Positions 6,131 through 22,243 of a DNA stretch of 57,398 nucleotides are shown here, piece after piece. The notes under the pieces are model-generated. The model ran no database searches and was not told where the DNA came from. It worked only from the letters and a program-made list of their open reading frames with translations. Position numbers and translations under genes: made by a program. Within the stretch, counting starts at the first letter, position 1. Every line of letters starts with the position of its first letter. The DNA comes from a virus (lineage: Duplodnaviria > Caudoviricetes): positions 1-57,398 of IMG/VR virus record IMGVR_UViG_3300048611_000204. One strand, 5' to 3'.

Positions 6131-6162
6131 ATTAAATTGTTGGGCAGCGCGGAGATAAAACG

Positions 6163-6480
6163 ATGCGAAACAAAACCGATAAATGCCGTTATTTTACCGG
6201 GATACAAAACAAAACATGTGAGATCGGGATCGAATACCCAGTAAGCGATCTGCCTTGCCTCGGAGATCACCAAACTTGTGATAAGCACGAACCATTTTCG
6301 GCGGAAGAATTGGCCGCAAAGAAGGTGGCAATGGATCGACACATGGACTTGATGAGGCGCGGCTTGTCTGGTTGTTGTGAGGCGGAATTTAACACCAACC
6401 AAGTGCTGACCAGCGGGAAGTACAAAGGTCACGGCCCGCGTTTTTGTTCAAAATGTGGGAAGCTGGCATTCATGGTTTAG
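6163..6480 (+). CDS. Cys-rich hypothetical protein (cassette gene)
   Basis: GGAG RBS; bounded by GTTGGGC (6139-6145) and GCCCAAC (6483-6489). Confidence 0.75.
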   Translation: MRNKTDKCRYFTGIQNKTCEIGIEYPVSDLPCLGDHQTCDKHEPFSAEELAAKKVAMDRHMDLMRRGLSGCCEAEFNTNQVLTSGKYKGHGPRFCSKCGKLAFMV

Positions 6481-6482
6481 CA

Positions 6483-6504
6483 GCCCAACACCTTGGGTAA
6501 CTGG
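6483..6504 (-). other. attC-like half site (L'-R' part only)
   Basis: Minus strand CCAGTTACC-CAAGGT-GTTGGGC; partner arm absent. Confidence 0.55.
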
Positions 6505-6554
6505 GCGGGGAGACTGGCGAGAGGTGGCAGGCGGCTATGGAGTTTCACCGAGCC

Positions 6555-6622
6555 GATTAACGATCAAGGTAAGCGGTGAGGCGCGGCCTTTCGCGCCGAT
6601 CCGCTTGACCGCCTGGTTAGGG
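6555..6622 (-). other. integron attC-like site A
   Basis: Minus strand CCCTAAC-CAGGC-GGTCAAGCGG...CCGCTTACC-TTGATC-GTTAATC: 5/6-nt spacers, extra C in L''. Confidence 0.85.
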
Positions 6623-6710
6623 TGATTTTGCACCTCAGAAAAAAACACACATTGCGTATATAATTAGAATCAAGAAGAGGACAAAACAACCCGAACCAAG
6701 GAGAAAGACA

Positions 6711-6932
6711 ATGATCAAAGCATATGCAAGAGAAACCGGGGAACAATATCCACTGTGCAGCCTGTTGGGGGAGCCCGACCATGATGGACTCAGCACCGTA
6801 GCTCCGAAATGCCGAGAGGGGAATGTGGTTTGGGTAGCGGGCGAGCGATGCGTGGTGTATGTGTCTGACCAGGGTAAGGAATATTTGGTCCCGACCACAA
6901 TGGATGGCTCCTTTTATTTGGTCGAAGCATGA
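6711..6932 (+). CDS. hypothetical protein
   Basis: AAGGAG RBS. Confidence 0.7.
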   Translation: MIKAYARETGEQYPLCSLLGEPDHDGLSTVAPKCREGNVVWVAGERCVVYVSDQGKEYLVPTTMDGSFYLVEA

Positions 6933-7184
6933 CCGGCGAAGAGCAAGCGGAGCTTGGCGGCCAACGCTCGTATGTGGGCCATGTTGTCGGACATATCGCG
7001 TCAGATTGATTGGCATGGGCAACGGCTCACCCCGGAGGATTGGAAGATCATGTTTACCACATCCCTCAAACAACAAAGGGTAGTTCCGGGTTTGGAGGGT
7101 AGCGGCTTCGTCGTTTTGGGCGCTTCAACGTCCAAGATGAGTGTTGCGGAGTTGTCACTAAAACAAAAAAGGAGGATAAAATGA
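6933..7184 (+). pseudogene. NinB-family recombination protein fragment
   Basis: RSLAANARMWAMLSDISRQIDWHG..L...DWK..F...VVPGLEG.GFVVLGASTSKMSVAELS; both termini missing. Confidence 0.75.
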
Positions 7185-7390
7185 AGTGCGAAAACTGCGG
7201 CCATGAATGTTATAGGGACGAGGTTCACGTTGGAGTTGGGGTTGTTTCCGGCCCATGGGGGTGTCCTTGCGGATGGAGCGAGGATGATAGATACAATCTT
7301 CTGGATGGACCCAAGAAAACAGCGGAGGGTGGGACCATAGATCAGTATGGCGGGGTTATCCCGAATCGCGACAATGGAGGCATGAAATGA
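7181..7390 (+). CDS. small Cys-rich hypothetical protein
   Basis: AGGAGG RBS; CENC...CPCGW. Confidence 0.7.
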   Translation: MKCENCGHECYRDEVHVGVGVVSGPWGCPCGWSEDDRYNLLDGPKKTAEGGTIDQYGGVIPNRDNGGMK

Positions 7391-7565
7391 AAGAGCTATT
7401 TTGGAGGACGATCTTTCGAAGCACCCCTGCCAAGTGGATATGCTGCGGTTGCAATGGATGGGACACCCGGCGCGGAGCCGGCCATTGAGTACCACCGAAC
7501 CTATCGAGAAACACGGACGCCGAAGGCGTCCCTTGCAGCGCCTTGTTATGGCGCGGGAGACGGAG

Positions 7566-7802
7566 ATGGATAGGACGAAAAATCCAGACATTGAAGCTGG
7601 GTATAAATTTGCATCAGCCGCGATAGAGTCGTTGTGTAAAACGGGGATAGGCGAAGATCCCCTTCTTTTTTACGCATCCATGATTGGCACCCATTTGGGC
7701 AATATTGCGGCCCATATCGGCAAGGCTGCCACGTTGGGGATGATTGATTGTTTGCGGGAGCAAGTGGCGGCAACCCTGCCAGATAAAGGCAAGATGCAGT
7801 AG
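7566..7802 (+). CDS. hypothetical protein
   Basis: GGAG upstream of ATG 7566; ends just before attC-like site B. Confidence 0.5.
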   Translation: MDRTKNPDIEAGYKFASAAIESLCKTGIGEDPLLFYASMIGTHLGNIAAHIGKAATLGMIDCLREQVAATLPDKGKMQ

Positions 7803-7804
7803 CA

Positions 7805-7892
7805 CCATAACGGTAGATTTAAGCGGCGGCGGAGTACTGTTCGCCTGGATCGCTGCTGCATCTTCCGTCCGGCTTCAAATCGTTGGTTATGT
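7805..7892 (-). other. integron attC-like site B
   Basis: Minus strand ACATAAC...TTTGAAGC...GCTTAAA-TCTACC-GTTATGG; imperfect palindrome with one extra base in the left arm. Confidence 0.75.
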
Positions 7893-7908
7893 GCTCATTG
7901 GAGGTGAT

Positions 7909-8073
7909 ATGCTCTATACCGCTGGGAAAGATGAACATTGCCCTGACTGCAATGAGGTTGTGTGCAGGTGCGAAGAATCCCCTGACCCTATCGCTGAAAT
8001 TGACAGAACACTGTCGAAGAAAACAAAACGTCGTCGAGGGCAACGAAGAGCGTCTAATTTATTTTTCACATAA
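7909..8073 (+). CDS. small hypothetical protein (cassette gene)
   Basis: GGAGGTG RBS; stop TAA lies in the ACATAAC core. Confidence 0.65.
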   Translation: MLYTAGKDEHCPDCNEVVCRCEESPDPIAEIDRTLSKKTKRRRGQRRASNLFFT

Positions 8074-8127
8074 CGATGAAGGTAAGCGGCGGACGGTTTA
8101 CCCGTCCGCTTGACCGCTGGGTTCGTT
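8068..8127 (-). other. integron attC-like site C
   Basis: Minus strand AACGAAC-CCAGC-GGTCAAGCGG...CCGCTTACC-TTCATC-GTTATGT; same arms as site A. Confidence 0.85.
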
Positions 8128-8175
8128 TACACCAACAACCCCACGAGCCCGCGCTTTTACTGACTTGGAGGAACA

Positions 8176-8334
8176 ATGAGAGAAATTGCAATCGGTGACA
8201 TTCACGGCTGCGTTCACACGCTTCGCCAGATGATCGAGCAGATTTCCCCGGTACAAGACGACCGCCTTATTTTTCTCGGGGACTATGTAGATCGGGGTTT
8301 TTATTCTGCCCAGGTGATAGAAGAACTACTGTAA
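8176..8334 (+). pseudogene. Ser/Thr phosphatase (metallophosphoesterase) N-terminal fragment
   Basis: 52 aa with GDIHG and GDYVDRG motifs; stops before the GNHE motif. Confidence 0.8.
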
Positions 8335-8639
8335 TGAGAATTTACATTGCTGGCCCTATGTCTGGATTGCCGGAATACAACTACCCGGCGTTTAATTCTG
8401 CTGCCGAGGAACTGCGGCGACAGGGACACGAGGTCGAGAACCCGGCAGAGAACCCGGAACCACCATGTAAAAGTTGGGCAGGCTATATGCGGATGGCCGT
8501 AGCTCAACTGGTTCGGTGTGAGGTTGTGGCGTTGCTGCCTGGGTGGGAAACATCGAAAGGTGCCAGCGTGGAACACCGACTGGCGCACGATCTCGGGCTG
8601 AAAGTGCTGCCGGTTTCCGCATTAGGTATTGCGGCTTAA
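8334..8639 (+). CDS. DUF4406 (nucleoside deoxyribosyltransferase-like) protein
   Basis: IYIAGPMSGLPEYNYPAF...NPAE...LPGWETSKGA..E. Confidence 0.85.
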   Translation: MRIYIAGPMSGLPEYNYPAFNSAAEELRRQGHEVENPAENPEPPCKSWAGYMRMAVAQLVRCEVVALLPGWETSKGASVEHRLAHDLGLKVLPVSALGIAA

Positions 8640-8698
8640 CGACTGAGGTCAAGGGCTCGGCGCAGTTTGCCGAGTCCGCTTGCAGCGATTGGTTATAT
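8634..8698 (-). other. integron attC-like site D
   Basis: Minus strand ATATAAC-CAATC-GCTGCAAG...CTCGGC/GCCGAG...CTTGACC-TCAGTC-GTTAAGC. Confidence 0.75.
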
Positions 8699-8924
8699 GC
8701 CGATGTGCCAACATAACGAAGTGTCTATAAGGGAAATGTTCATCACCTCATATTGTTATGACAGGGAAGGTGGACAATGGACAGGTGGCGAAGGGATGAT
8801 GCCTGATCCGACAGGAAAACTCTATATCAAATGCCGAGAGTGCGGGCTAGATAGGAAGTATTACCGCCATCAAAAAAATATGCCCGCATGGCTGAGACGC
8901 CACTTGGAAGAACTAGGCATATAA
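8697..8924 (+). CDS. hypothetical protein (cassette gene)
   Basis: Fills the interval GTTATAT...ATATAAC; stop TAA lies in the core. Confidence 0.65.
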   Translation: MPMCQHNEVSIREMFITSYCYDREGGQWTGGEGMMPDPTGKLYIKCRECGLDRKYYRHQKNMPAWLRRHLEELGI

Positions 8925-8968
8925 CAAAAAGCACACCGGCCGCAGGTCCGGTGCTGCGGGAGTTGTCA
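8919..8968 (-). other. short or degenerate attC-like site E
   Basis: Minus strand TGACAAC-TCCC-GCAGCACCGG...CCGGTGTGC-TTTTT-GTTATAT; spacers 1 nt shorter than canonical. Confidence 0.5.
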
Positions 8969-9000
8969 AGCAATCCTTTACAACTGGGCGTGAGGAAATC

Positions 9001-9360
9001 ATGAAACATCTATTTGCAGCAGTTGCATTTTTGCTGTTCGGCTGCGGTCAGGAACCAGCGAAGAACATACCTCAACCGCAACCCGACTCAACCGTTGAAG
9101 TCAGAATGACCATCAACTACGGGAACTCGGACGCTATAGCCATGGTCTGCGGTGAGCCCGACATGGCCGTTAAGACAATACGGGGCTGTGCCTTTTCCGA
9201 TGGACTCGTTGATGGGGCGTATCGAGGCACGATCTGGCTGTTAAATGACCATCAGGGCGCCGTATCGCTCGCTGAGCGCATGACTGGCCACGAAGTAAGG
9301 CATATCCTCGGCCACACCCACGCATCGGACCTGGAGCAGGCCCTGCAGCATGGCTTTTAA
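9001..9360 (+). CDS. putative lipoprotein with HExxH motif
   Basis: Signal peptide ending LFGC lipobox; GHEVRHILGH. Confidence 0.65.
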   Translation: MKHLFAAVAFLLFGCGQEPAKNIPQPQPDSTVEVRMTINYGNSDAIAMVCGEPDMAVKTIRGCAFSDGLVDGAYRGTIWLLNDHQGAVSLAERMTGHEVRHILGHTHASDLEQALQHGF

Positions 9361-9385
9361 CCTTTTAACCAAAAAGGAGATTGAA

Positions 9386-9718
9386 ATGAAGGTTCAGGAG
9401 GTACTCGACAGCGCACGATATAACCCCATCCTCGGCTTCTGGTCGGTGTATATCGACACCCGGTGGCGGGTCTACACGGCGAGCACGCTGCACGACCTGC
9501 TGTCTATCCTGACGGCGTACTCGATCCTGCCCGAAGGAAGACCGCCGTTGCGGCTGGTAATCGTCTGTCTCTGGCGGCAGAGGGTGCCGGTAGGCGTCGC
9601 CCTAGCCGAGCTGCACGCCATGGGCTATCGCGGCACCAGCCGCTGCGAGCTGATCCGGGAATGGGTCGGGCTCGATGAAGTAAGCCACCCGTGCGCCATG
9701 AGGTTGGAGGAAGGATGA
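9386..9718 (+). CDS. hypothetical protein
   Basis: AAGGAG RBS before ATG 9386. Confidence 0.55.
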   Translation: MKVQEVLDSARYNPILGFWSVYIDTRWRVYTASTLHDLLSILTAYSILPEGRPPLRLVIVCLWRQRVPVGVALAELHAMGYRGTSRCELIREWVGLDEVSHPCAMRLEEG

Positions 9719-9948
9719 ATCGCAAGTCGTTTATCACACAGCAAATCAGCGAAGCTTTTGTCGTCGGTGACGACTATCTCGACACCAAGAAGATCTCTTC
9801 CGCCTTTATGTCTGAGGACAAGAAGAACGAGCTGCTGCTGGAGATGTCCAAGTTGAAGAAGAAGGCGGGCCGCAAGGCGCAGCCGAAGAAGGAAGTCGCC
9901 GAGTCCAAACCCGCCGAGAAAGAAGGCGAACAAGGGAGCCTGTTATGA
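9715..9948 (+). CDS. hypothetical protein
   Basis: GGAGG RBS; ATGA overlap; ends EQGSLL. Confidence 0.65.
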   Translation: MNRKSFITQQISEAFVVGDDYLDTKKISSAFMSEDKKNELLLEMSKLKKKAGRKAQPKKEVAESKPAEKEGEQGSLL

Positions 9949-10103
9949 ACGTAGTTATCGAAATCGAAAAAACCATCGAAGTCGCTGTTTATGAAGTGTC
10001 TTGCGAGTGCGGACAAATCCTTAAGTTCAAGGCGTCGGCAGACAGCGACTCCGATATTCTCGTTGAGGTCGAAGAACACATCTGCATTCAGGAGGATAAA
10101 TAA
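9945..10103 (+). CDS. small hypothetical protein
   Basis: 52 aa MNVVIEIEK...CECG...HIC; ATGA overlap; absent from ORF track because of size. Confidence 0.6.
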   Translation: MNVVIEIEKTIEVAVYEVSCECGQILKFKASADSDSDILVEVEEHICIQEDK

Positions 10104-10104
10104 T

Positions 10105-10284
10105 ATGGCTACCGACATGCAAATCACCTGGGAAAAGAAAACCTACGACATCCCGGAAGGCTTCACCGTTGCTGAGTTCGTCGACTCGCTGGCATCGAAG
10201 GACCCGAAAGCGGCGACCGCCGAGCTGATCGACGACGGCGACGGCAAATACACCTTGAAGTCCGTCTTCAAGCCGAAGGGGTAG
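10105..10284 (+). CDS. small ubiquitin-like (beta-grasp) candidate
   Basis: AGGAGG RBS; 59 aa; TVAEF..SL....P...A.L......Y.L...KG C-terminus. Confidence 0.5.
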   Translation: MATDMQITWEKKTYDIPEGFTVAEFVDSLASKDPKAATAELIDDGDGKYTLKSVFKPKG

Positions 10285-10367
10285 GTTAATCGAAGGACCG
10301 GAGACGATCGATTGTGTGGGTTCTCGTCTCCGGTTCTTCTTCCCCTGTATTTTGACAAGGAGGCTCT

Positions 10368-10565
10368 ATGGCAAACAACGTCTTCACCATGCACCTCGAC
10401 CTGAGTGGCGACGAGTTCGTCGCCTGGGAGGAAGGTGAGGTCGCCAGACGCCTGCTTTTGATCGTGGAGAAGCTGCGCCATGGTCGAAGGCACGACATTA
10501 TCCTGAACAACAACAACGAACAGATCGGCGCGTATGCGATCAGCGGAGGCTATGACGAGAAATGA
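10368..10565 (+). CDS. hypothetical protein
   Basis: AGGAGG RBS. Confidence 0.7.
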   Translation: MANNVFTMHLDLSGDEFVAWEEGEVARRLLLIVEKLRHGRRHDIILNNNNEQIGAYAISGGYDEK

Positions 10566-10768
10566 AGATAACCAGACACAAGCTGCCACGGTGCAGCTGC
10601 AAGGAAACCATCGACGGCCGGACTCTCGTATGCGGGAAGCCGGCCTTTGCCGTTCACCGGTTGGATTACGGCTTTCAGAAACTGACCATCTACGCCTGCG
10701 AAGACTGCGACCGGAAACTTTCAGCAACCCATGATGCGTACCAGCGCGCGACAGGAGCAATCAAATGA
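10562..10768 (+). CDS. small Cys-containing hypothetical protein
   Basis: ATGA overlaps on both sides. Confidence 0.6.
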   Translation: MKITRHKLPRCSCKETIDGRTLVCGKPAFAVHRLDYGFQKLTIYACEDCDRKLSATHDAYQRATGAIK

Positions 10769-11856
10769 AACAGGGAACCTTCGGAAATCTGCAGTCACTG
10801 GCCATGGAGCTTGACCGCAGAAGCAGAAACCGCAACGACTTCATCGTCGAGCCCAAAGCCGCCGAGATCTTCCATGAGGAAGGCGACAATCGCCCGCATC
10901 TGCACTTCACCCATCAGGACAGTAACTGCCATACCCTGCTCAGCAAGACGGTCATGCAGGACCTGGCCTTGCAACAGATGATGCAGCGGCTGAACATCCC
11001 GGCCGCCTACCACCGCAAGGTTTTGTCCGAGCATCCGGCCCTGCTGCGCGAGAACGTCAATTACCTGCTGCAGCGGCACACTACGCCGATGATGTTCCGC
11101 ACCCGAGACAACCAGACCGACGCGGTCCTCTCCAACGCCTACAAGCGGATCGACAACTACCCGGTAGCCTCGATGGTGCTGCCAGTCCTTCAGGAAGCCG
11201 ACGTGACTGTCGAGTCCTGCGACGTGACTGACCACAAAATGTATATTAAGGTCGTTTCTCCGCGCCTGCAGGGCGATGTCAAGGTCAACGACCCGGTTCA
11301 GCTCGGTATGGTCATCAGCAACTCGGAAGTCGGGCTCGGCTTTTTGAACGTTCAGACCATGATCTACCGGCTGGTCTGCACCAACGGCATGATCTCCGGC
11401 CGGGATCTGGGCGAAGGTATTCGCATGGCGCACCGCGGCTCCCGCCAGCCGCTCGGAGTCGCCTACCAGGAAGACACCATCCGCGCGATCGGCAACTCGA
11501 TCACCATGCAGGTTCGCGACACCGTCAGACAACTTCTCTCCCCGGAAAACTTCGCCAAACAGCTGGAAGCTTTGCGCGAAACCACCGGGCGCAAGGTCAC
11601 CGGCGATCCGACCCAGGCGGTCAAGGAACTCGGCAAGGTCGTCGGCTTCACCGAGGACGAAGGGAGCGGCATTATGCGGCACCTGATCGAGGGCGGCGAC
11701 CTGTCACAATATGGTCTGCTCAACGCCGTGACCCGCTACAGCCAGGACGACAATATCAACTACGACCGAGCAACTGAACTGGAGCGACTGGGCGGCAAGA
11801 TCCTTGAACTGAACCCGCGGCAGTGGAAGGTTATCTCCGAAGCGGAAGCAGCGTAA
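10765..11856 (+). CDS. DUF932-family protein
   Basis: AVLSNAYKRIDN...ISNSEVG.G...YRLVCTNGM...NAVT. Confidence 0.8.
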   Translation: MKQGTFGNLQSLAMELDRRSRNRNDFIVEPKAAEIFHEEGDNRPHLHFTHQDSNCHTLLSKTVMQDLALQQMMQRLNIPAAYHRKVLSEHPALLRENVNYLLQRHTTPMMFRTRDNQTDAVLSNAYKRIDNYPVASMVLPVLQEADVTVESCDVTDHKMYIKVVSPRLQGDVKVNDPVQLGMVISNSEVGLGFLNVQTMIYRLVCTNGMISGRDLGEGIRMAHRGSRQPLGVAYQEDTIRAIGNSITMQVRDTVRQLLSPENFAKQLEALRETTGRKVTGDPTQAVKELGKVVGFTEDEGSGIMRHLIEGGDLSQYGLLNAVTRYSQDDNINYDRATELERLGGKILELNPRQWKVISEAEAA

Positions 11857-11914
11857 AAATTATTCCAAGGGAAGTCATCCCGGCTGCCCTTATTTTTTTC
11901 AAAAGGAGAACATT

Positions 11915-12619
11915 GTGAAAAGATTCGCAGAATTGACCGACGCGGAAGTTATCGAGATCACCAACAACCAAGAGCGGGTTGAGCAGCTGATCGACCTGGA
12001 GTGCGCGTGGCAGGGCATCCCCTTGCTGCCGCCTCACCCCGGCAAGGAACCGGAACTGGAAGAGCTGGCCAATGACTTTCCCTACTACAAAGTCGGCAAC
12101 CTGTGTTTTGCCGATCGCAAAGAAGCCGAAGAAATCTTCGCCGCCGTCCAGAATATGCGCCTGGTCGACTCTGACTACTCGACGCATGTCGTGACCGATC
12201 TGAAGCCCGACGACTACAACTACCCCGAGCTCGAAGCCCGCGCGGGCGTGTCAAAGGAGAATTACAACGCCTATCATGAGCGCACTCAACTTGACCGTGA
12301 GCGCAAAACGGCGTGGCAGGAGCAGATGAACACCTACAACAAGATCGACAAGCAGCGCAGCGCAATTGTGCAGACCTTCTGGGATCGTTTTCACGCTATC
12401 CAGAGCGTTCGCGAACAGATCACCAATATCAACGCCGACCTTGAACGCTATCTGACTCTGGCCGAAGGAAACCAGAACGTAGCGATCAACTTCATGCTCA
12501 ATGCCCGCAAGGACGGCTCGCTTCAAGAAAGAGACGGCGCCCTGCAATATATCGACGAGAAGGGCGTCAGTCACGAAACTGGTATCGCGCGGCCCGACGA
12601 CGTGGTAGATAAATTTTAA
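11915..12619 (+). CDS. hypothetical protein
   Basis: AAGGAG RBS, GTG start, 234 aa. Confidence 0.8.
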   Translation: MKRFAELTDAEVIEITNNQERVEQLIDLECAWQGIPLLPPHPGKEPELEELANDFPYYKVGNLCFADRKEAEEIFAAVQNMRLVDSDYSTHVVTDLKPDDYNYPELEARAGVSKENYNAYHERTQLDRERKTAWQEQMNTYNKIDKQRSAIVQTFWDRFHAIQSVREQITNINADLERYLTLAEGNQNVAINFMLNARKDGSLQERDGALQYIDEKGVSHETGIARPDDVVDKF

Positions 12620-12675
12620 GACGTCATGTGATTTACCGGAGCAGCCTCGCAGGAGGCTGTTCTATTAAATTCCAT

Positions 12676-12707
12676 GTCGCTTCCCGCGCGAAAGCGTAGG
12701 TTGAAAC
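12676..12707 (+). CRISPR. solitary diverged type I-C-like repeat
   Basis: GTCGCTTCCCGCGCGAAAGCGTAGGTTGAAAC; 25/32 identical to the array repeat; two stem pairs changed compensatorily (C-G to T-A). Confidence 0.75.
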
Positions 12708-12746
12708 CACTATTCAAAGCGGGCGAGGCCCGGGAAAGGACAGACT

Positions 12747-15138: not shown

Positions 15139-15170
15139 AAAAGCCCCTGGCGCAAGTCAGGGGCTTTTTT
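15139..15170 (+). terminator. intrinsic terminator
   Basis: AAAAGCCCCTGGC-GCAA-GTCAGGGGCTTTTTT. Confidence 0.8.
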
Positions 15171-15194
15171 GTGAAAGATTGGAAGGAGGACAGT

Positions 15195-15683: not shown

Positions 15684-15778
15684 TCTTAAAAAGATGGAAT
15701 CCGGATCAAAGCTAAAGCATGATGAACCGCTCGTCATGCTTTTTGCCCGTACCTCTTGCCCACTCCGAAGGGTCTTCT

Positions 15779-16636
15779 ATGATTATTAAGCCACGCCACC
15801 TGAAAATCCAGTTTCAGAAAGTCCGAAAAGGAGAATTTATGAGAAAGGGGCTCTCCACCGGCTACACCGACCTCGACAAGCTGATCCGGCTGGCCAAGGG
15901 ATATCTGATGGTCATCACCGGGATTCCCGGCATGGGCAAGAGCGAGTGGTTGGACGCGGTCCTGGTCAATATGTCGCTTGAGCATGGCTGGAAGACGCTC
16001 TTCTACTCCCCGGAAAATCACCCGATCGAGATGCACATGGGGAAACTGGCGGAGAAATTTATCGGCAAGTCGATTCTGAAATTCACCGAAACCGAAAATG
16101 ACACAGCCATGGAATATCTGGACAATTATTTCCTCTGGACGGACCCTGAAGTGCCGCTGCTCGAAACCCTTCTCGACCAGGCCAAGCTGCAGATCGACAC
16201 AGACGGCCTCGACTGCCTGGTTATCGATCCATGGAACGCGGTCATGCACAAGCGGGCCGCCGCCGAGCTGCTGCACGAATATCTCGCCAACACACTGACC
16301 CGCATCATCAAGTTCGCCCGCGACAACAACGTGCTGATCGCCATCGTAGCGCACCCCAGCAAGCCGCAGAAGGACAAGGACGGCTCTTACCCTGTCCCTA
16401 CCCTCTACGACATCTCTGACGGAGCGATGTGGCGCAACAAGATGGATTACGGAGTCGTTTGCCACCGGCCGGACATGACCAAGAACCAGCTGGCGGTCTA
16501 CGTGCAGAAGATCAAGCAGAAATGGATGGGCAAGGTCGGTATGGAAGTTCTCGACTACGACTGGCAGAGCGGCCGCTTCAAGAACATGAGCGATCAGGAA
16601 TACAAACTCGTGACCGAAATACAGGCACCGTTTTGA
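15779..16636 (+). CDS. DnaB/T7 gp4-like (SF4) replicative helicase
   Basis: Walker A GIPGMGKS, Walker B LVIDP, VAHP, YDISDG; start uncertain. Confidence 0.88.
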   Translation: MIIKPRHLKIQFQKVRKGEFMRKGLSTGYTDLDKLIRLAKGYLMVITGIPGMGKSEWLDAVLVNMSLEHGWKTLFYSPENHPIEMHMGKLAEKFIGKSILKFTETENDTAMEYLDNYFLWTDPEVPLLETLLDQAKLQIDTDGLDCLVIDPWNAVMHKRAAAELLHEYLANTLTRIIKFARDNNVLIAIVAHPSKPQKDKDGSYPVPTLYDISDGAMWRNKMDYGVVCHRPDMTKNQLAVYVQKIKQKWMGKVGMEVLDYDWQSGRFKNMSDQEYKLVTEIQAPF

Positions 16637-16645
16637 GGAGTAATT

Positions 16646-17339
16646 ATGCTGAACATCCCCAGTTTCTACCCGACGCCCGCCCTTCTTGCGTCGAAAATGC
16701 TGTCAAAGATAAAAGGCTACCCCACCCGCTGGCTGGAGCCTTCCGCCGGCAAGGGCGACCTGGCCGAACAGATCAGAACCAGGTATAAATCCTCCTACGG
16801 AAGCCAGGCGCAAATTTTCTGTATCGAAAAAGACAATGATCTGCAGGCGACTCTCCGCGGCAAGGGCTTCACGCTTCTCGACTCCGACTTTCTGACCTAC
16901 TCTGCCCCCGACCAGTTCGACGCGATCCTCATGAACCCGCCCTTCGAGAGCGGTGAGAATCATCTACTCAAGGCGATAGAAATCATGTATCGCGGTCAAA
17001 TCGTCTGCCTGCTGAACGCCGAGACGATCAGACACCCGTTCACCAACAACCGCCGGCGGCGCCAACAAGGGATCGTCGACCTACTTCGACTTCGTCTGTT
17101 ACAAGAAGGGGACGATTCACCTGACATTCCGAAGCGAGAATATCCTGCGTCGCTTCAACGTCACCGCCTGCAAGGGAAAGGGCTGGTTGCCGGGAGACTA
17201 CGGGGCCAGACCCTACGAGCAGCTGAGCGTGCTGGAGCGTGAACTGGTCGAGCAGTTCGAGGTCAAGCACGCGGATTATGTTCAGAATCAGGGACAAAAG
17301 CTTTTCTCCGCCAAGAACACGCTGCAGATCACGATTTAG
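16646..17339 (+). pseudogene. adenine methyltransferase with DUF4942-like C-terminus, internally deleted and frameshifted
   Basis: LEPSAGKG and MNPPF in the first frame; YFDFVCYKKGTIHLTF...GWLP continues in another frame from ~17060 to TAG 17339. Confidence 0.75.
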
Positions 17340-17347
17340 GAGGGCTG

Positions 17348-17821
17348 ATGGCCAGTTATTTCAAGACCCTGCAAATAGCAAAGGAGATGGACTTCGACCC
17401 GCGGGAAGCGGCGCTGTGCAGGATTCGCTTCCTGCAGCCGCTGCTCGACTTCTACAAACAGGATTACTTCTGCGACGACGAGCTGAACCGCTTCGTCGCG
17501 CGGCGCTGGGGAGGTGAGATAGAGGAAGAGATAAATTACCTGAACAAGAACACCATTCACCAGAGAGAATTCGACCCGATCAACGATATCGACGACGCGC
17601 GCATCGAGCGGGCCAGGGATTACCCTCTGGAAAAACTGATCGACTTCAAAAACGGAGTTGCCCTGGCCTTCTGTCATCAGGATAATTCGCCCTCGCTCTC
17701 CCTGCACAGAAAAGCCAACCGCGCTAGATGCTTCGTCTGCGACAAGAGTTTCAATTCGGTAGATGTAATGATGGAGGTCTTCGGCTTCTCCTTTATCGAT
17801 GCTGTAAAGGCCCTGACCTGA
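17348..17821 (+). CDS. CHC2 zinc-finger (primase Zn-binding domain) protein
   Basis: FCHQDNSPSLS...CFVC...D.M....SFIDAVKAL. Confidence 0.75.
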   Translation: MASYFKTLQIAKEMDFDPREAALCRIRFLQPLLDFYKQDYFCDDELNRFVARRWGGEIEEEINYLNKNTIHQREFDPINDIDDARIERARDYPLEKLIDFKNGVALAFCHQDNSPSLSLHRKANRARCFVCDKSFNSVDVMMEVFGFSFIDAVKALT

Positions 17822-17832
17822 AAAGGATTTTT

Positions 17833-18165
17833 ATGAAGGTACAAATCAAAAGGCTGGATGGGAAACGCTGGAAGCCGCTGCTGGCTGAGGAATTGGTCGG
17901 CAAGTCGACTATCGACTTCCTGCTGGAAAGCCAGGACACCCTGGTCGCCGCGGCGTTCGACCCGGGCACCGACAAGCCGTTCCTCTTTATCTCCAACAAC
18001 CCGACCTACGTCGAGATGTACAAGGAGCGGGGCGTGAGCCTGAGCGCCAAGGACGTTCGCAGCCTGTTTCTGTCCGAGAACGTCCCGCAGGTCGTCGCGC
18101 ACGTCTTCCCGGACGGAGAAATCGGCGCGATGACCGCTATTTCGGAGCAGGGAAACCTGCTTTGA
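17833..18165 (+). CDS. hypothetical protein
   Basis: AAGGA RBS; ends EQGNLL. Confidence 0.7.
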   Translation: MKVQIKRLDGKRWKPLLAEELVGKSTIDFLLESQDTLVAAAFDPGTDKPFLFISNNPTYVEMYKERGVSLSAKDVRSLFLSENVPQVVAHVFPDGEIGAMTAISEQGNLL

Positions 18166-18175
18166 CATTTTTCTT

Positions 18176-18205
18176 TTGACAAGACGCCGTGGGAAAAAGT
18201 ATCTT
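18176..18205 (+). promoter_or_regulatory. sigma70-like promoter candidate
   Basis: TTGACA-N18-TATCTT at the start of a long intergenic region. Confidence 0.45.
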
Positions 18206-18323
18206 GTCCAAACGAAATTAACAGATTGGCATTGTCGGGATACCAGTCTGAGAGAAAAGAGCAGCAACATCGCTCGAACCCGCTACGGAGCCCGACACTC
18301 CAAGGCGGGTTTTTTTTGTGCAA

Positions 18324-18553
18324 AATCCAGGGTGGTCAGGTCTATCGGGTAGCGCCCTGGATTGTTCATCCCGTACTATGCGAGCTCAAAACGGGAACCG
18401 TGGGTACAGACCTAGAGCGGTGAGTGATCGGCTGATACAGAGCTGATAATAGTCTAGGGTCAAAGTCGCTCCACTGTATCAGGTGAGCGTCCGAGCGGCG
18501 AGCGATCTTATACGGCTGTTCGAAAGGTACTGACTCCACGATAGGGTCAGTGC
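18324..18553 (+). ncRNA. candidate structured RNA or element
   Basis: Four consecutive stems plus a possible pseudoknot in an intergenic region. Confidence 0.4.
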
Positions 18554-18616
18554 GACCAGCTCACGAAGCTAACCGGCTGTTGAAAAGAAATAACTGATAA
18601 TATTTAAGGAGATCTT

Positions 18617-19069
18617 ATGGAAGTTTGTAGTTGCGGTTCTCGAATGAAGGTTTGTACCCAGCACAAGGTTGCAGGCTCCGAGTGCACCGGTTGCGGCAAG
18701 CGTATTTGGAATAGCCAAGCCGATCTCGATCTGGCAACCATCAATTCGCGCGACATAACAGAAGAATTAGAGGTGGGGTGGCCGGATAAAATGACTTGTT
18801 CAACTTGCCGGTGGTGGGTACTCGACAAAAATGACAGCTACAACTCACTGATTTCACCGGAAGACCCGGTGACGTACGAGCAGGAGAAGACGGAAGAGGC
18901 CATCGCCACCAAGTGGGGCCACGTTGTGCGGCGCTGTCGCTGCCCAAAGATTACGTTCTATCAGCGCCCGGAGCGCGACGGGGCTACCGTGTGTGACGGG
19001 TCGGAATATATGGCGCAACTGCTTACGGGGCCGGACTTCGGCTGTATCCATCATGAGCCGAACGATTAA
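18617..19069 (+). CDS. Cys-rich hypothetical protein
   Basis: AAGGAG RBS; several CxxC. Confidence 0.65.
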   Translation: MEVCSCGSRMKVCTQHKVAGSECTGCGKRIWNSQADLDLATINSRDITEELEVGWPDKMTCSTCRWWVLDKNDSYNSLISPEDPVTYEQEKTEEAIATKWGHVVRRCRCPKITFYQRPERDGATVCDGSEYMAQLLTGPDFGCIHHEPND

Positions 19070-19195
19070 AACAATAGCCACTGAGTCGGTAACGGCTCCA
19101 AGCCGCGAGGTGGGTATCAAGTTCGGGGGGGTAGAGTACCTTCTGGAGGAAGCCTGTGGATGCTACGACGGGTAGAGGTTTTGCGCCGATTTAGA

Positions 19196-19329
19196 ATCTA
19201 ACGATCAAAGATAAGGGGATTGCGGATATGACGACACCGAAAGACAAATACTCTGAACCTGATGTTTATGTCTGCCCTGCTTGCGGAAAGCCCAGTGGTA
19301 GCAATTCCCTCTTAATTAACGGGTTAGGG
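19196..19329 (-). other. integron attC-like site G (long loop)
   Basis: Minus strand CCCTAAC-CCGTT-AATTAAGAGGGAATTGC...GCAATCCCCTTATCT-TTGATC-GTTAGAT. Confidence 0.7.
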
Positions 19330-19536
19330 GGCGGGGCTGAACGGGCCACCATTGACAAGGCGTTGAAACTGGCCGTTGAGTATGGCGGAATTGACGGCGC
19401 TCACCACAAGGACTGGGTAATAGACCAGGTGATCAGGATACTGGCCGGCGATGGTTACGACAAGCTGGTGGCTGAAAGCTGTGATGGAGAGGATGGCCCG
19501 AACACATATGGCTGGGATTGCGGTATAGCACCCTAA
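19228..19536 (+). CDS. hypothetical protein (cassette gene, starts inside site G)
   Basis: YGGIDGAHHKDWVIDQ..R.L...WD.GIAP; stop TAA in CCCTAAC core. Confidence 0.7.
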   Translation: MTTPKDKYSEPDVYVCPACGKPSGSNSLLINGLGGGAERATIDKALKLAVEYGGIDGAHHKDWVIDQVIRILAGDGYDKLVAESCDGEDGPNTYGWDCGIAP

Positions 19537-19615
19537 CGATTGAGGTCAGCGGACCGGTGGGGCGCTGACGGAAAACACTGCCATATCAACCTCCGCTGCA
19601 TTGGGCTGGTTGGAT
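19531..19615 (-). other. integron attC-like site H
   Basis: Minus strand ATCCAAC...TGCAGCGG...CCGCTGACC-TCAATC-GTTAGGG. Confidence 0.7.
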
Positions 19616-19639
19616 GGCAATCTAACTACGGAGACGAGA

Positions 19640-19885
19640 ATGCAGACATTAACCTACCCTGTAACTGATGAGCGCCATCGCCGCGCTATTGCCCACCGTA
19701 ACTTTTGCCCAGAATGCGGGTCTGAGGTGGATACCGGCTGGGAGTGCAATAACCGAGAGTGCCAGTATGACGCCAGAGACGAAGCGTTGTCGGTGACCAA
19801 TGCTGATGTGCTGGCGCTGCTGGTATGGGAGCGGGCAGATGAGCGGCCCGCGATTGACCAGCGCGGAACTGGGCGTTACTGCTAG
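19640..19885 (+). CDS. small Zn-ribbon protein (cassette gene)
   Basis: GGAG RBS; CPECG...C....C. Confidence 0.6.
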   Translation: MQTLTYPVTDERHRRAIAHRNFCPECGSEVDTGWECNNRECQYDARDEALSVTNADVLALLVWERADERPAIDQRGTGRYC

Positions 19886-19887
19886 AC

Positions 19888-19910
19888 AGCCAACGATGCT
19901 ATCAGCGGAC
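19888..19910 (-). other. attC/attI-like half site
   Basis: Minus strand GTCCGCTGATAGCATC-GTTGGCT; no partner arm found. Confidence 0.45.
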
Positions 19911-20030
19911 GGCGACGGACCGCCCGCGAATCACTGAATTATTTAAGGATAATCAATAATGGTCAGCCCGAGATTGAACGGCATGCGGTCGTTCAATCGG
20001 GCCGATCAATTAACAAGGAGGATTTACTAG

Positions 20031-20306
20031 ATGGCAGAATCTATTTCGTTACCCAGATACAAATGTCACAAGGTCGTGCAGGCGGCCAGGATCACTCGTA
20101 TTGACAGACGCGGCACACCGGAGGTCAAAGTCTTGATTCTCGGTGAAGCAGGCCAGGAACTTGTAATCAACGACGAGTTTGCCAATAAGCACCATCCAAA
20201 GGTCGGCAAATATCTCGTTGTTTACGAAGACGGCCACAAGTCTATTACGCCAACTGAGGTCTTCGAGGCCGGCTATGCCCTGATCGAAGAGGAGGAGTCT
20301 GAATAA
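20031..20306 (+). CDS. hypothetical phage protein
   Basis: AGGAGG RBS; LPRYKCHKVV.A...G.YLVVYEDG..S..P...FEAGY. Confidence 0.8.
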   Translation: MAESISLPRYKCHKVVQAARITRIDRRGTPEVKVLILGEAGQELVINDEFANKHHPKVGKYLVVYEDGHKSITPTEVFEAGYALIEEEESE

Positions 20307-20629
20307 TGGAACTCATAACCAGAACCCTGCCGTCTCTGTTGAGCGACGAGCAGCGCAACGCTTACGGACAGGAGCAGGCCAAGTTGCTTGTCGAGATCAA
20401 GTCCCTCGAAGCGGATCGCACCGAAGCCAACCGGCGTATCAAGCCTAAGCGGACCCGCGTCAACTACTTGGCGCCGGTCATCGACTCCGGCATGGAACAC
20501 AAGGAAGTCGAGTGTTATTGGGAATATCACTGGGAGCAAGGCGTGAAAAACCTGCGCCGGCACGACACCGACGAAATCGTCGAGGACACAGTCCCGATTG
20601 AGGACTACGAATCGCAGATGAACCTTTGA
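20306..20629 (+). CDS. hypothetical protein
   Basis: GAGGAG RBS; ends SQMNL. Confidence 0.75.
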   Translation: MELITRTLPSLLSDEQRNAYGQEQAKLLVEIKSLEADRTEANRRIKPKRTRVNYLAPVIDSGMEHKEVECYWEYHWEQGVKNLRRHDTDEIVEDTVPIEDYESQMNL

Positions 20630-20634
20630 TCGAC

Positions 20635-20755
20635 AGGGCGCTACCGTCTAAAGTGGCTGGCGCGAGACGTCGGGTTAAGCGCCGGCCAAGTACTGTCTGG
20701 TACTGAGATCAACAGCCCCTCTCCCCCTCCGGGGCTGCTCAAGTCAGACCGCCCT
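20635..20755 (+). ncRNA. candidate three-way-junction RNA
   Basis: Closing stem AGGGCG/CGCCCT enclosing two hairpins; followed by a terminator. Confidence 0.4.
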
Positions 20756-20765
20756 TTGTTTCATG

Positions 20766-20796
20766 CCCCCGCTTCTCTGAAAAGCGGGGGTTTTTT
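20766..20796 (+). terminator. intrinsic terminator
   Basis: CCCCCGCTT/AAGCGGGGG followed by TTTTTT. Confidence 0.8.
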
Positions 20797-20834
20797 CGTT
20801 GTTTGCCATGCGCATATTGCTGGCAGGAGGAAGG

Positions 20835-21119
20835 ATGGGCTATCCAGATCCAGACATCAGATTGAAGAAGGAGTATGGCGGCGTCAGGGCCGCGCTCGAA
20901 TACTGCGTCTCGTTGAACTTGAACAAGACCCAGGCGGCCAACCTATTGGGGATCGATCGCGCGACCCTCAGAGAGCGAGCCAGGCGTTATAACGTCGCCT
21001 TCCCGGACGGATATGCGACCCGTGACACGACGCTGGCCAGAGAAATCAGCCGGGAACGAATCATCGCCGGGAATCAAAACGGAAACATGGGCGGCCGGAG
21101 ACGATGGAAAAAGGTCTGA
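20835..21119 (+). CDS. Fis-type helix-turn-helix protein
   Basis: NKTQAANLLGIDRATLRER; AGGAGG RBS. Confidence 0.75.
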   Translation: MGYPDPDIRLKKEYGGVRAALEYCVSLNLNKTQAANLLGIDRATLRERARRYNVAFPDGYATRDTTLAREISRERIIAGNQNGNMGGRRRWKKV

Positions 21120-21241
21120 ACGGCCTGGCCGTGTCCACCGCAATTAAATTAATATCTACACAGATTTAACCGAGAAAAGGGATGTATCATGATTTCAGTT
21201 GAACGATTAGCTAACGGGCTTGCGGCCCTACGGAGGAGAAC

Positions 21242-21613
21242 ATGGGAATTGGAGAGAGATTTGAATTCGAGAAGACGGGCCGAATAGACCCAGAGCGTAG
21301 CAAGTCCGCCGTGCAGCGTTTGGTTAGCGCCTTTTCGGAGCACGACTGTCTCTGCTGCGGACCGTTTGAGGGCGACTTTGGTTCCCCGGATGACCGCATC
21401 TTGAAAGACAAAATGGTGACAGCCCGCAAGAGCGGGGAATGCCACCTGTGCGGCCAGCAGATACAGCCGAAAGAGCGGATCAGGACCATGGCCGCTGTGT
21501 TCGACGGTGAATTGATGTCGTACCGCTGGTGCAACGCCTGCTGTGCAGCCATGGCAAAGAGCCTGTACGACGATGGCGAAGCATGGGAAGACCGCTCAGC
21601 ATTGAGGCGCTAA
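21242..21613 (+). CDS. Cys-rich hypothetical protein
   Basis: GGAGGAG RBS; stop TAA in the CGCTAAC core of site J. Confidence 0.75.
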   Translation: MGIGERFEFEKTGRIDPERSKSAVQRLVSAFSEHDCLCCGPFEGDFGSPDDRILKDKMVTARKSGECHLCGQQIQPKERIRTMAAVFDGELMSYRWCNACCAAMAKSLYDDGEAWEDRSALRR

Positions 21614-21709
21614 CGGTAAGGGTTGAGCCAGCGCGACGCGCCGCTGGCCGACCACCGAACTTTTCGAGGAGCTGCCGTGTTGAACGTCGGCTCGAACCCA
21701 TTGTTAGAC
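21608..21709 (-). other. integron attC-like site J
   Basis: Minus strand GTCTAAC-AATGG-GTTCGAGCC...GGCTCAAC-CCTTACC-GTTAGCG; extra C at position 4 of L''. Confidence 0.8.
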
Positions 21710-21725
21710 CCATTTGGAGGACGCT

Positions 21726-21947
21726 GTGAAAAGAGAAATTCAGAGATTTACCGTAGGCGACGTTATCAGGATGCCTCATTACCCGACATGCGGCGGCTTC
21801 CGCTGCTGGAAAGTGATAGGCGAACACCTTGGAGGGGTGAAACAGGAAGGCACCTATGAACTTTTGCCGCTGGACGTGGTTGGCAACGAAGCTGTTCATG
21901 TGCCATGCCTAATGTTGGAGACTCACCCGGAAATCGTCAGGGTCTAA
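21726..21947 (+). CDS. hypothetical protein (cassette gene)
   Basis: GGAGG RBS, GTG start; bounded by GTTAGACCC...GGGTCTAAC. Confidence 0.7.
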   Translation: MKREIQRFTVGDVIRMPHYPTCGGFRCWKVIGEHLGGVKQEGTYELLPLDVVGNEAVHVPCLMLETHPEIVRV

Positions 21948-22243
21948 CAATAATTCTACAGCACCCAATGCCGTATAGTCTTTTTCCCTTTTTGGCTTAA
22001 ACCCTTAAAAATGGAGGTCTTTATGAAAATGACAGAGAGACAGGCCCTGCATACGAAGAGCGGGGTCAGGCCGGACCCTCGACGGCGTGGTCCACGATGA
22101 ACTGCCGTGGGACAAGCCAAAACAGGAGGGGCGTTGAGCCCGACCACAAACAGGAAGGAGGAAGATCATGGCTATTCATTGCCCACGCGGAATCTGTGTC
22201 GAGTGTGAAGGGCACTGCGGACTCTGCTTTCAGGAGAAGAAGA

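Follow-up and report, generated by a model that had tools for sequence, protein, structure and literature searches.

In the textbook picture of an integron, a promoterless gene lies upstream of its own attC site and is oriented for expression from Pc. The promoter-bearing cassettes of sedentary chromosomal integrons, in contrast, are reverse-oriented. Such cassettes (e.g., toxin-antitoxin) have their own promoter and do not rely on Pc, a likeness to the cassettes described here, and excision rate is strongly set by the strand carrying the attC bottom strand, according to the sections cited of Richard et al. 2024 (Sci Adv, PMC13108822). In bacterial arrays, promoter-bearing cassettes are a minority, whereas in the locus described here whole arrays are reversed, hold phage genes and lie in a phage genome. 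The sections used of Nivina 2016 define an attC site as an imperfect palindrome bounded by R' (5'-RYYYAAC-3') and R'' (5'-GTTRRRY-3'), put the cleavage point within the R' AAC of the bottom strand, and locate extrahelical bases near L'', those of attCaadA7 being G16 and T23, 7 apart.

Clusters of attC sites without an integrase (CALINs) have been published for phages by Qi et al. 2023 (Front Microbiol, PMC9892861). In the portions of that article consulted, five of six phage attC sites tested were recombined by IntI1 into attI1, the bottom strand more than the top; the attC sites of phage TJE1 were functional, and the TJE1 and PH101 arrays were described with a typical bacterial structure. Our locus resembles these CALINs in its several attC sites without an integrase, and small hypothetical genes and DNA methyltransferases nearby are a further likeness (PMC9892861). 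A claim of novelty for phage-borne attC arrays as such therefore fails, and it is the reversed cassette polarity that appears to be new. In TJE1 the attC strand is opposite the ORFs, whereas coding strand and attC bottom strand coincide in the window (the whole 57,398-base stretch of phage DNA analysed) and in 17 other viral records. In the main text of Qi et al. (PMC9892861), so far as covered, nothing was found on how gene sense relates to attC polarity, and our search found no reversed attC polarity of phage cassettes in print.

The inverted integron-integrase group (Treponema and others) is similar in that its intI has the transcription direction of its cassette genes. According to the cited parts of Wu 2013 (PMC3607928) and Cury 2016 (PMC4889954), the Treponema intI points at attI and the cassettes, and the integrase is thus the flipped part. 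In two phage records that carry an integrase, G024 and G023, the attC-to-intI geometry is instead ordinary and the cassette genes are flipped, reading toward intI.

The attC sites of the window and the features around them are arranged as follows.

6555..6622, + strand: attC site 1 (R2 46.5 bits; bottom strand on +; predicted crossover 6560|6561, TAA|C)
6623..6710, + strand: promoter and 5'UTR module, travels with attC site 1 (alignments A2, A4, A6)
6711..7802, + strand: cargo between sites 1 and 2, four ORFs with a NinB match and PHROG matches
6711-6932, + strand: ORF, cargo of sites 1-2
6972-7184, + strand: NinB fragment (PF05772 8.7e-24, profile positions 48-112 of 131)
7181-7390, + strand: zinc-ribbon ORF, cargo of sites 1-2
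7401-7802, + strand: ORF, cargo of sites 1-2
7805..7892, + strand: attC site 2 (R2 21.9 bits; predicted crossover 7810|7811)
7909..8073, + strand: 54-aa Cys-rich ORF, TAA stop is the TAA of the site 3 5' box; no family match in Pfam or PHROGs
8068..8127, + strand: attC site 3 (R2 49.9 bits; predicted crossover 8073|8074)
8176-8334, + strand: truncated NinI-like metallophosphatase, 52 aa (PF00149 1.1e-8, profile positions 4-53 of 191)
8334-8639, + strand: DUF4406 ORF (PF14359 6e-30), abuts the phosphatase fragment; stop is the TAA of site 4
8634..8698, + strand: attC site 4 (R2 37.4 bits; predicted crossover 8639|8640)
8919..8968, no strand assigned: terminator-like hairpin, not attC by the model (stem 8954-8933 on the minus strand, then a T run)
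19196..19329, + strand: attC site 5 (R2 28.9 bits; predicted crossover 19201|19202)
19228..19536, + strand: 102-aa ORF (phrog_23179 2.1e-7), TAA stop shared with site 6
19531..19615, + strand: attC site 6 (R2 22.7 bits; predicted crossover 19536|19537)
21198..21329, + strand: weak attC-like candidate, not counted (R2 11.2 bits, E ~1)
21242..21613, + strand: 123-aa DUF7576 ORF (PF24461 3.8e-6; phrog_19515 4.5e-19), TAA stop shared with site 7
21608..21709, + strand: attC site 7 (R2 22.3 bits; predicted crossover 21613|21614)

The scores are those of a covariance model, R2, built from an alignment (A3) of 25 attC sites in arrays adjoining intI in seven bacterial genomes; no window site was included, and the A3 sites had been gathered with a model, R1, whose training included some window sites. 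Scanning the window with R2 (filters off, E <= 10) returned 14 matches, seven of them with E values of 2.3e-12 to 6.3e-4. All seven strong matches lay on the + strand, none on the minus strand, and their coordinates were exactly those of the seven complete attC-like palindromes of the initial annotation, which the model, built without window sequence, thereby recovered in full. The short variant at 8919-8968, which had also been called attC-like, was absent from the R2 matches. No other match rose above noise; the next-best was the weak candidate at 21198-21329, and joints of contigs from sequencing run X4 touch it at 21202, 21207 and 21328. In a control scan with default filters, 80 loci from phages whose helicase is 39-56% identical (1,076,063 bases in all) gave no attC match. 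Nothing above 11.3 bits was found in a distant relative of 65,962 bases, and an Rfam search of the window returned no matching family.

The anatomy of the sites agreed with the model. The TAAC and GTT motifs that are invariant in alignment A1 were visible in all seven, as inverse core sites R' and R''. The L-box stem has one extra G on its 3' arm (CCGCTT-G-ACC, + strand), with another unpaired base, a T, 7 nt ahead of it; the unpaired central spacers measure 6 and 5 nt, and loop length ranges from about 5 to 100 nt, so that extrahelical bases, a central spacer and a variable terminal structure are all present. This sequence evidence identifies all seven palindromes as true attC sites of the integron type. 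Four lie in 6555-8698, two in 19196-19615 and one at 21608; with at least two attC sites and no intI nearby, they together form a CALIN in the phage early region. The clusters flank the replication genes on both sides, a point that bears on lagging-strand placement as a conceivable reason for the polarity.

Polarity was calibrated on seven reference integrons with an intI above the TIGR02249 cut-off. The model orientation equalled the intI strand in each of the seven, with matches upstream of intI; 27 of 29 matches were on the intI strand, the other two being weak echoes on the reverse strand, and the intI strand in these integrons is the recombinogenic bottom strand. In the window, PHROGs matched 20 of 47 ORFs on the + strand and 0 of 16 on the minus strand. 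The inversion relative to the genes that the initial annotation had proposed is thus real, as the model places the recombinogenic strand on + and the window genes are also on +; the predicted recombinogenic bottom strand codes for the phage genes (sense strand), opposite to the arrangement in bacterial integrons. The ORF stops tell the same: the TAA stop of the upstream ORF is the TAA of the 5' box at four of the seven sites (8073, 8639, 19536, 21613). Across 26 sites of the reference arrays, ORF stops were canonical (opposite end, other strand) at 17, same-strand at 6 and neither at 3, compared to 4, 15 and 8 of 27 sites in the window and five phage contigs (Fisher p = 0.0016). Phage TJE1 served as a positive control, and R1 matched the strand opposite its annotated ORFs, the canonical layout; the rule of an ORF stop inside the box misclassifies TJE1, whose ORFs end inside its sites, and this phage was judged by its record annotation. 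We would guess that the reversed polarity reflects a transcription direction shared with the phage operons and with phage-borne intI.

Reversed polarity was found in 18 of the 19 viral records examined (the window and 17 others), which were reached via one attC subfamily or one cassette gene and are not a random phage sample; the exception, provirus record G017, was canonical. One of six viral matches, at a contig end (L002), was left out. Sites were co-oriented with Pfam-supported genes in 10 contigs, and in an attC-blind sample chosen by HTH protein all 26 matches were on the gene strand, in 10 of 15 loci.

Five phage contigs have in common a cassette composed of attC, promoter, variable ORF and HTH gene, with an identical right end at TAA|C and four different right flanks. 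With its promoter, a small acidic ORF that varies and an HTH gene that is conserved, this cassette presumably resembles anti-defence operons with an HTH autorepressor. Between two of the phages (G012 and G015) about 650 bp are common, from the CTAAC of their own attC to CACC(C/T)TAA|C. These alignments show that one reversed cassette has been exchanged among other phages exactly at TAA|C. Window sites, too, have counterparts in other phages. The site 1 allele also occurs in G015 and G012, with homology from TAAC on into the promoter module; the site 2 allele follows the HTH cassette in L162, where the site alone is common and both flanks differ; site 3 is 93% identical over 45 nt to a site of G013, and site 4 is 93% identical over 73 nt to one of G012. 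Insertion of cassettes outside att sites (attG) is reported for bacterial genomes in the consulted part of Loot et al. (bioRxiv 10.1101/2022.09.11.507474). It would account for lone reversed cassettes whose TAA|C end abuts non-attC sequence (G015, L165, L163).

No tyrosine recombinase had been recognised in the initial annotation, and a PF00589 search of the 57-kb record indeed gave no match; CheckV completeness is 83%, and an integrase may therefore sit in the missing part. A complete integron has an intI gene with attI beside it and cassettes oriented for expression from Pc; with no tyrosine recombinase in the record and with cassette genes on the bottom strand, the locus is not one. True IntI genes were present in G024 and G023 (397 and 335 bits, cut-off 265), on the same strand as the reversed cassette and 46-50 nt downstream of its TAA|C. 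G024 carries portal, terminase and endolysin genes and, judging by these, is a real phage. Seven more viral contigs have an IntI 71-85% identical in the best segment, one of them recognised via a 27-residue piece only. In five of the six IntI loci inspected, four being new, ORFs preceding the crossover were mostly co-oriented with intI.

We consider it probable that the window carries genuine attC sites in reversed cassettes recombined by an IntI supplied in trans. On the sense strand such a cassette reads C-attC-(promoter or RBS)-ORF(s)-TAA: attC precedes its own gene, the gene stop often coincides with the TAA at the following crossover and, the cassette being reverse-built, the coding strand and the folded recombinogenic bottom strand are one and the same. 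An integron integrase acting in trans would cut 5'-AA|C-3' on the + strand and thereby excise, insert and exchange these units, and the window phage's own sites would still be recombined. A host IntI was the source originally proposed. Use in trans fits the findings, but since related phage records have their own IntI, a co-resident phage-borne integron of the G023/G024 kind may equally well be the source. Two points count against continued recombination in this phage: among the relatives sought, none close to it turned up with a window cassette gained or lost at its cores, and the indels of near relatives described next lie elsewhere.

A rival that we regard as unlikely holds that the sites are relics, which came with cassettes moved by an integrase in an ancestor or other phage and have ceased to recombine in this phage, whose early region would now change only by ordinary illegitimate or short-homology recombination. 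The absence of an integrase from the record is in keeping with this, as are the indels of near relatives. These were sought in contigs of four public runs mapped on 4500-23500. The nearest relative, G016:C11 (TerL 67% identical), lacks attC and is so diverged that indel ends cannot be placed in it; no match or close relative was found by megablast of 1-25000 against isolated phages, by a DUF932 protein search of viral contigs, or among metagenome contigs searched with ORF 9001-9360 or with a pattern specific to the site 1 allele. One clean indel, 18587-19935 (1349 bp), removes sites 5 and 6 and three ORFs; its ends lie at an RBS-proximal repeat and beside a degenerate half-site, outside the model-supported cores. 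A second, 4601-5078 (478 bp), is without any attC. The expectation that cassette boundaries fall at the cores was borne out at AA|C by the HTH cassette of the five other contigs and by the left edge of window site 1, but not by the near-relative indel at 18587-19935. No precise attC x attC excision product was present among the 15 joints listed for contigs of the four runs; contigs drop rare variants, and this lack says little. Four inter-attC joints (7890>19196, 8123>8638, 8696>19199, 21328>8079) have unknown letters between sides of just 29-38 letters and were for that reason not read either way. Loose contig ends occurred near the starts of site 1 (6558, run X4), site 3 (8071, run X3) and site 7 (21609, runs X2 and X4); the contigs at site 7 diverge again at 21640 and so represent another site with a similar arm.

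Features within the window also speak for relics. The cargo is of phage type, as initially annotated (NinB fragment, NinI-like phosphatase fragment, DUF4406, small zinc-ribbon ORFs), and it includes fragments typical of illegitimate recombination: NinB lacks its N-terminus and the phosphatase is cut after 52 aa. The site 1 promoter module retains a -10 TATAAT at 6659-6664 and has lost its -35 part relative to G015 and G012; a promoter scan of the window did not call it. Site 5, whose long variable loop contains the start of ORF 19228-19536, has a 69-nt insert (19228-19296) that is absent in contigs of three runs, and sites 2, 5, 6 and 7 score just 22-29 bits. In contrast, sites 1, 3 and 4 score like sites of working bacterial arrays (37-50 versus 22-71 bits), polarity is the same in all seven sites with the TAA-stop arrangement kept in four, and sites 1, 3 and 4 are 91-93% identical to sites of unrelated phages, which argues for recent transfer.

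It is improbable that the sites are instead exapted hairpins, kept on the sense strand as RNA or DNA for transcription or mRNA processing (as weak terminator, insulator or processing site) and not for recombination, a function that would set the polarity. In all seven sites the + strand folds with greater stability than the minus strand, by 3.0-6.4 kcal/mol (RNA parameters), the promoter module lies directly downstream of site 1, and attC sites are thought to contain weak terminators, as noted in the consulted part of Qi et al. (PMC9892861). No T runs follow the sites, however, and a terminator scan listed only a trivial 7-pair stem in site 1; moreover, the exact homology break at TAA|C between phages and the true IntI genes beside reversed arrays would be left unexplained. 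Chance palindromes, or a repeat family without relation to integrons, are a very remote prospect for which only the general abundance of hairpins in GC-rich DNA speaks, and are refuted computationally by seven matches (E <= 6.3e-4) to a model whose training sites adjoin intI and by the empty control of 1.08 Mb of related phage DNA.

Beyond recombination of reversed cassettes in trans, we tentatively raise a wider possibility: phages may run their own integron system, in which a phage IntI lineage lies downstream of reversed arrays and is co-transcribed with them. Under this proposal the first cassette would often supply a strong promoter and an Xre-type HTH regulator, and phages without an integrase, such as the window phage, would draw on the same pool of cassettes. 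Polarity would separate the phage pool from that of the host, a cross-inserted cassette being antisense either way. The recombinogenic strand would be exposed by transcription or lagging-strand synthesis, allowing shuffling within a single infection.

These results describe whole arrays built opposite to the taught cassette layout, and in phages, and supply specific phage-borne IntI genes and sites that can be taken to the bench. If the reading is true, pipelines that assume a gene upstream of attC on the top strand would mis-assign phage cargo, and the effect of strand placement on attC folding would be testable in nature, the bottom strand being the transcribed sense strand. If reversed cassettes recombine, small early genes would be swapped site-specifically among unrelated phage genomes, and the swapped cargo would include methyltransferases and candidate regulators or anti-defence genes.

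Seven palindromes of the window had been described in the initial annotation as complete attC-like sites; they are given here with the strand of the covariance-model match described below:

6555-6622, plus strand, site 1
7805-7892, plus strand, site 2
8068-8127, plus strand, site 3
8634-8698, plus strand, site 4
19196-19329, plus strand, site 5 (cluster 2)
19531-19615, plus strand, site 6 (cluster 2)
21608-21709, plus strand, site 7 (cluster 3)

Each site opens with xxxTAAC and a 6-nt spacer, continues with one arm of a 9-bp stem and a variable loop, and closes with the stem partner, which has an extra G, a 5-nt spacer and GTTxxxx. As read from the window sites, a second unpaired base, a T, lies on the same arm 7 nt ahead of the extra G. 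According to Nivina et al. (2016), attC sites carry the boxes R' (RYYYAAC on the bottom strand) and R'' (GTTRRRY) and extrahelical bases near L''; their central spacer is unpaired, their terminal structure varies, and the bottom strand is cleaved within the AAC of R'. The extrahelical bases of attCaadA7 given there, G16 and T23, are 7 apart, the same spacing as that of the two extra bases in the window sites.

A pattern derived from the window sites was used to gather similar sites in other genomes. An integron integrase gene (intI) above the TIGR02249 cut-off was present in 6 of the 10 genomes searched, and seven intI neighbourhoods were taken from those six. A covariance model, R2, was trained on 25 sites from these seven intI-adjacent arrays only; the sites count as bona fide because of their position beside intI, with the caveat that they were gathered with R1, a model itself trained partly on window sites. 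R2 recovered all seven complete sites, all on the plus strand (E = 2.3e-12 to 6.3e-4), and the next-best match in the window reached 11.2 bits. As controls, R2 matched nothing in 1.08 Mb from phages whose helicase is related, and nothing above 11.3 bits in a 66-kb distant relative. The window sites thus belong to the attC family as annotated, and the window qualifies as a CALIN, an attC cluster lacking an integron integrase. The short variant at 8919-8968, also annotated as attC-like, had no R2 match, resembles a minus-strand terminator and was rejected. A degenerate attC-like half-site at 19886-19940 retains AAC, GAT and a TCAGCGG arm and lacks the GTT box. In contigs of three other runs site 5 is compact, without the 69 nt at 19228-19296 that in the window lie within the site 5 loop and carry the start codon and CPxCG motif of ORF 19228-19536.

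The window is a linear IMG/VR virus record of 57,398 bases with a completeness of 83% (CheckV). AT skew and ORFs placed a plus-strand early region at about 2 to 24.4 kb and, beyond it, structural genes on the minus strand. PHROGs matches were obtained for 20 of the 47 candidate plus-strand ORFs and Pfam matches at E<=0.01 for 14, while the 16 longest minus-strand ORFs of the 6-22 kb interval had no PHROGs match. The enclosed genes are therefore on the plus strand, in agreement with the annotation. Features of the window included:

3415-3879, plus strand, phage-encoded peptide deformylase (PF01327, 5.8e-27)
6933-7184, plus strand, NinB gene fragment inside a cassette, first ~47 family positions absent, directly 3' of the ORF 6711-6932 stop
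8176-8639, plus strand, truncated NinI-like phosphatase and DUF4406 gene in a cassette, the phosphatase ending after 52 aa with its stop overlapping the DUF4406 start
20765-20800, plus strand, strong intrinsic terminator after ORF 20306-20629 (GC-rich 10-pair stem, then a T run), separating transcription units between clusters 2 and 3
28771-37929, minus strand, one ORF of 3052 aa in the structural region
Other plus-strand matches: DUF4406, DUF932, replication initiator, DnaB-like helicase, methyltransferase, exonuclease and resolvase

Model matches in all seven reference integrons lay upstream of intI, and 27 of the 29 were on its strand, the other two being weak opposite-strand echoes. The intI strand is the bottom strand, because intI and the cassettes diverge in an ordinary integron. 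An ORF stop was canonical, at the far site end on the opposite strand, for 17 of 26 sites in intI-adjacent arrays, same-strand for 6 and neither for 3; the corresponding counts for 37 sites in bacterial loci without intI in view were 12, 1 and 24. The window matches lie on the strand of the genes, and the TAA of the 5' box is the stop codon of the upstream ORF at four of the seven sites, so that the ORF ends at the predicted crossover, TAA|C. Matches in phage TJE1, used as a control, fell on the strand opposite the annotated ORFs, which demonstrates that the method can detect the ordinary layout in a phage. From the reference calibration, the window strand and the TJE1 check, it follows that the bottom strand of the window attC sites is the sense strand of the genes, and the description of the sites as inverted was correct.

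The reversed layout is not peculiar to the window phage. A first pattern scan yielded five other analysable viral contigs (G011-G015) with 20 sites at E<0.01, every one on the strand of long ORFs carrying Pfam domains, including DNA methylases, a primase-helicase and a ProQ-like protein. Between one another, these contigs have almost no DNA in common apart from the sites. A second pattern added five records, of which G018-G021 were reversed; the exception, G017, the record of a provirus that encodes an ordinary tyrosine recombinase, had the canonical layout. Among the 27 sites of the window and the first five contigs, a same-strand ORF stop lay in the 5' box in 15, with 4 canonical and 8 neither, and this arrangement differed from that of the intI-adjacent bacterial sites (Fisher p = 0.0016). 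Beside an attC cluster of G012, an intein-containing gene (L049:6804-9422, minus strand) comprises an 872-aa ORF with Hint and LAGLIDADG homing-endonuclease domains.

G012 and G015 have a stretch of about 650 bp in common. Its attC is of the same allele as site 1 of the window, and the stretch also contains a sigma-70 promoter, a small ORF that varies and a conserved Xre-type HTH gene of 65 aa, whose HTH matches are below Pfam cut-offs. On the left, the homology sets in at the CTAAC of the attC that belongs to the cassette; on the right, it stops at CACC(C/T)TAA|C, the HTH stop codon. A search of viral contigs with the HTH protein, which is blind to attC, gave 15 loci, each oriented by its HTH gene; R2 matched 26 times in 10 of them, always on the gene strand (26/26). 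When the five closest contigs were aligned, the homology ended on the right at the same TAA|C in all, followed by four different continuations, two of them different attC sites and two non-attC sequences. One right end with varied continuations is expected of AA|C cleavage on the sense strand. A crossover at the opposite site end would not produce this pattern. By these boundaries, the attC belongs with the gene that follows it. Homology of window site 1 to G015 and G012 runs from TAAC some 30 to 100 nt into the promoter/5'UTR, after which the genes differ, and the -35 part of the promoter is deleted in the window. In the mobile HTH cassette (L167:1035-1674; L054:9017-9584, minus strand; L050:5231-5782, minus strand), repeated ACACAATGTG-like words flank a consensus sigma-70 promoter, after which come a small, acidic, variable ORF and then the conserved Xre-type HTH gene. 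We take this layout to resemble that of anti-defence operons with an HTH autorepressor.

At two HTH loci, the gene that follows in the same orientation was a true integron integrase (G024, 397 bits; G023, 335 bits; cut-off 265). G024 is a phage; besides a phage integrase distinct from IntI, it encodes a portal, a large terminase, head-closure and structural proteins and an endolysin. Its five attC sites have the ordinary geometry, upstream of intI and on the same strand as intI, and the cassette genes with PHROG support share this strand and read toward intI; the HTH stop TAA|C is 46 nt ahead of the intI start codon. Seven further viral contigs carried IntI 71-85% identical in the best segment, one as a 27-residue piece only. 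The platforms, in which intI starts 46-50 nt past a TAA|C crossover, were located at:

L167:974-2760 (G024), phage-borne integron platform
L163:1492-2821 (G023), phage-borne integron platform
L181, L182 and L184-L186, phage-borne integron platforms

In the six loci read (G024 and five of the seven), conservation sets in at the C of TAAC and extends over the 46-50 nt to the start codon, and the sequence upstream varies. The conserved stretch begins AAT(G/C)ATTATC and carries a CTGTATATCC-like motif and an AGGAGG RBS. In five of the six loci, most upstream ORFs had the orientation of intI; a greedy ORF pick gave 5 of 10 at the G024 locus. R2 found two sites in G030 and one in G033, all on the intI strand and upstream of the gene, and no site in the other three loci read. 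Since the upstream cassette genes read toward intI, the promoter of the first cassette may drive intI. In Treponema-type inverted-integrase integrons, as outlined in the available descriptions, intI reads toward attI and the cassettes, whereas in the G024 type the cassette genes read toward intI.

No close relative of the window was found by megablast of 1-25000 against isolated phages, with the DUF932 protein against viral contigs, or with ORF 9001-9360 and the site 1 pattern against metagenome contigs. Near relatives were seen as contigs of four sediment runs holding parts of the region. They lack a clean 1349-bp block (18587-19935) comprising sites 5 and 6 and three ORFs. The block ends at an RBS-proximal repeat and beside the degenerate half-site, directly after which its right end falls, and both ends have a common ACTGA...ATTTAAGGA word just upstream of gene starts. 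A gene-sized 478-bp stretch at 4601-5078 (ORF 4612-5070), also absent from near relatives, has no attC. Neither difference lies at a model-supported core, which did not match the expectation that indel boundaries in relatives would fall at crossover cores and favours the main alternative, that the window sites are now inert relics; we consider this unlikely. The homology breaks at TAA|C among the five other phage contigs fit the proposed gain, loss and shuffling of reverse-oriented accessory cassettes; these near-relative indels do not.

Loose contig ends starting at 6558 and 8071 fit a TAA|C crossover; they may come from other organisms having only the site in common, as the loose end at 21609 clearly does. 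At site 2, only the site itself is common to the window and L162, a stretch of a compared record, and such sharing is also produced by family-wide attC similarity. No precise excision product was present among the listed contig joints of the four runs, contigs being prone to drop rare variants. The distant relative G016:C11 (L061, L063-L065), binned in a Cyanobacteriota-titled MAG, is syntenic and circularly permuted, with a TerL 67% identical, and appears to be a phage genome, not host DNA; its 65,962 bases contain no attC sites. Recombination of the window sites would take place at TAA|C on the sense strand with IntI supplied in trans, and this is the probable reading. The initial interpretation, in which a host IntI acts in trans on inverted phage cassettes, is as a whole partly supported.

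A screen of 10,705 phage genomes gave 3 complete integrons, one In0 and 17 CALINs, and IntI1 recombined five of six tested phage attC sites (Qi et al. 2023, PMC9892861); a phage CALIN as such is therefore not new. The arrays of TJE1 and PH101 are called typical there, and no mention of gene sense relative to attC polarity was found in the passages searched. Both those CALINs and the window carry attC clusters, yet TJE1 matches lie opposite the ORFs and window matches on the gene strand. Searches of an open-access library turned up no account of phage cassettes in reversed orientation, nor of an intI that follows co-oriented cassettes. The available text of Richard et al. (2024, PMC13108822) reports promoter-bearing cassettes in chromosomal integrons, and excision rising from <7e-5 up to 3e-2 with the bottom strand on the lagging-strand template. 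Because bottom-strand placement alters excision in that study, strand placement is plausible as a selective variable. Relative to these published studies, the new elements are the reversed cassette architecture and its tie to a lineage of phage-borne integron integrases.
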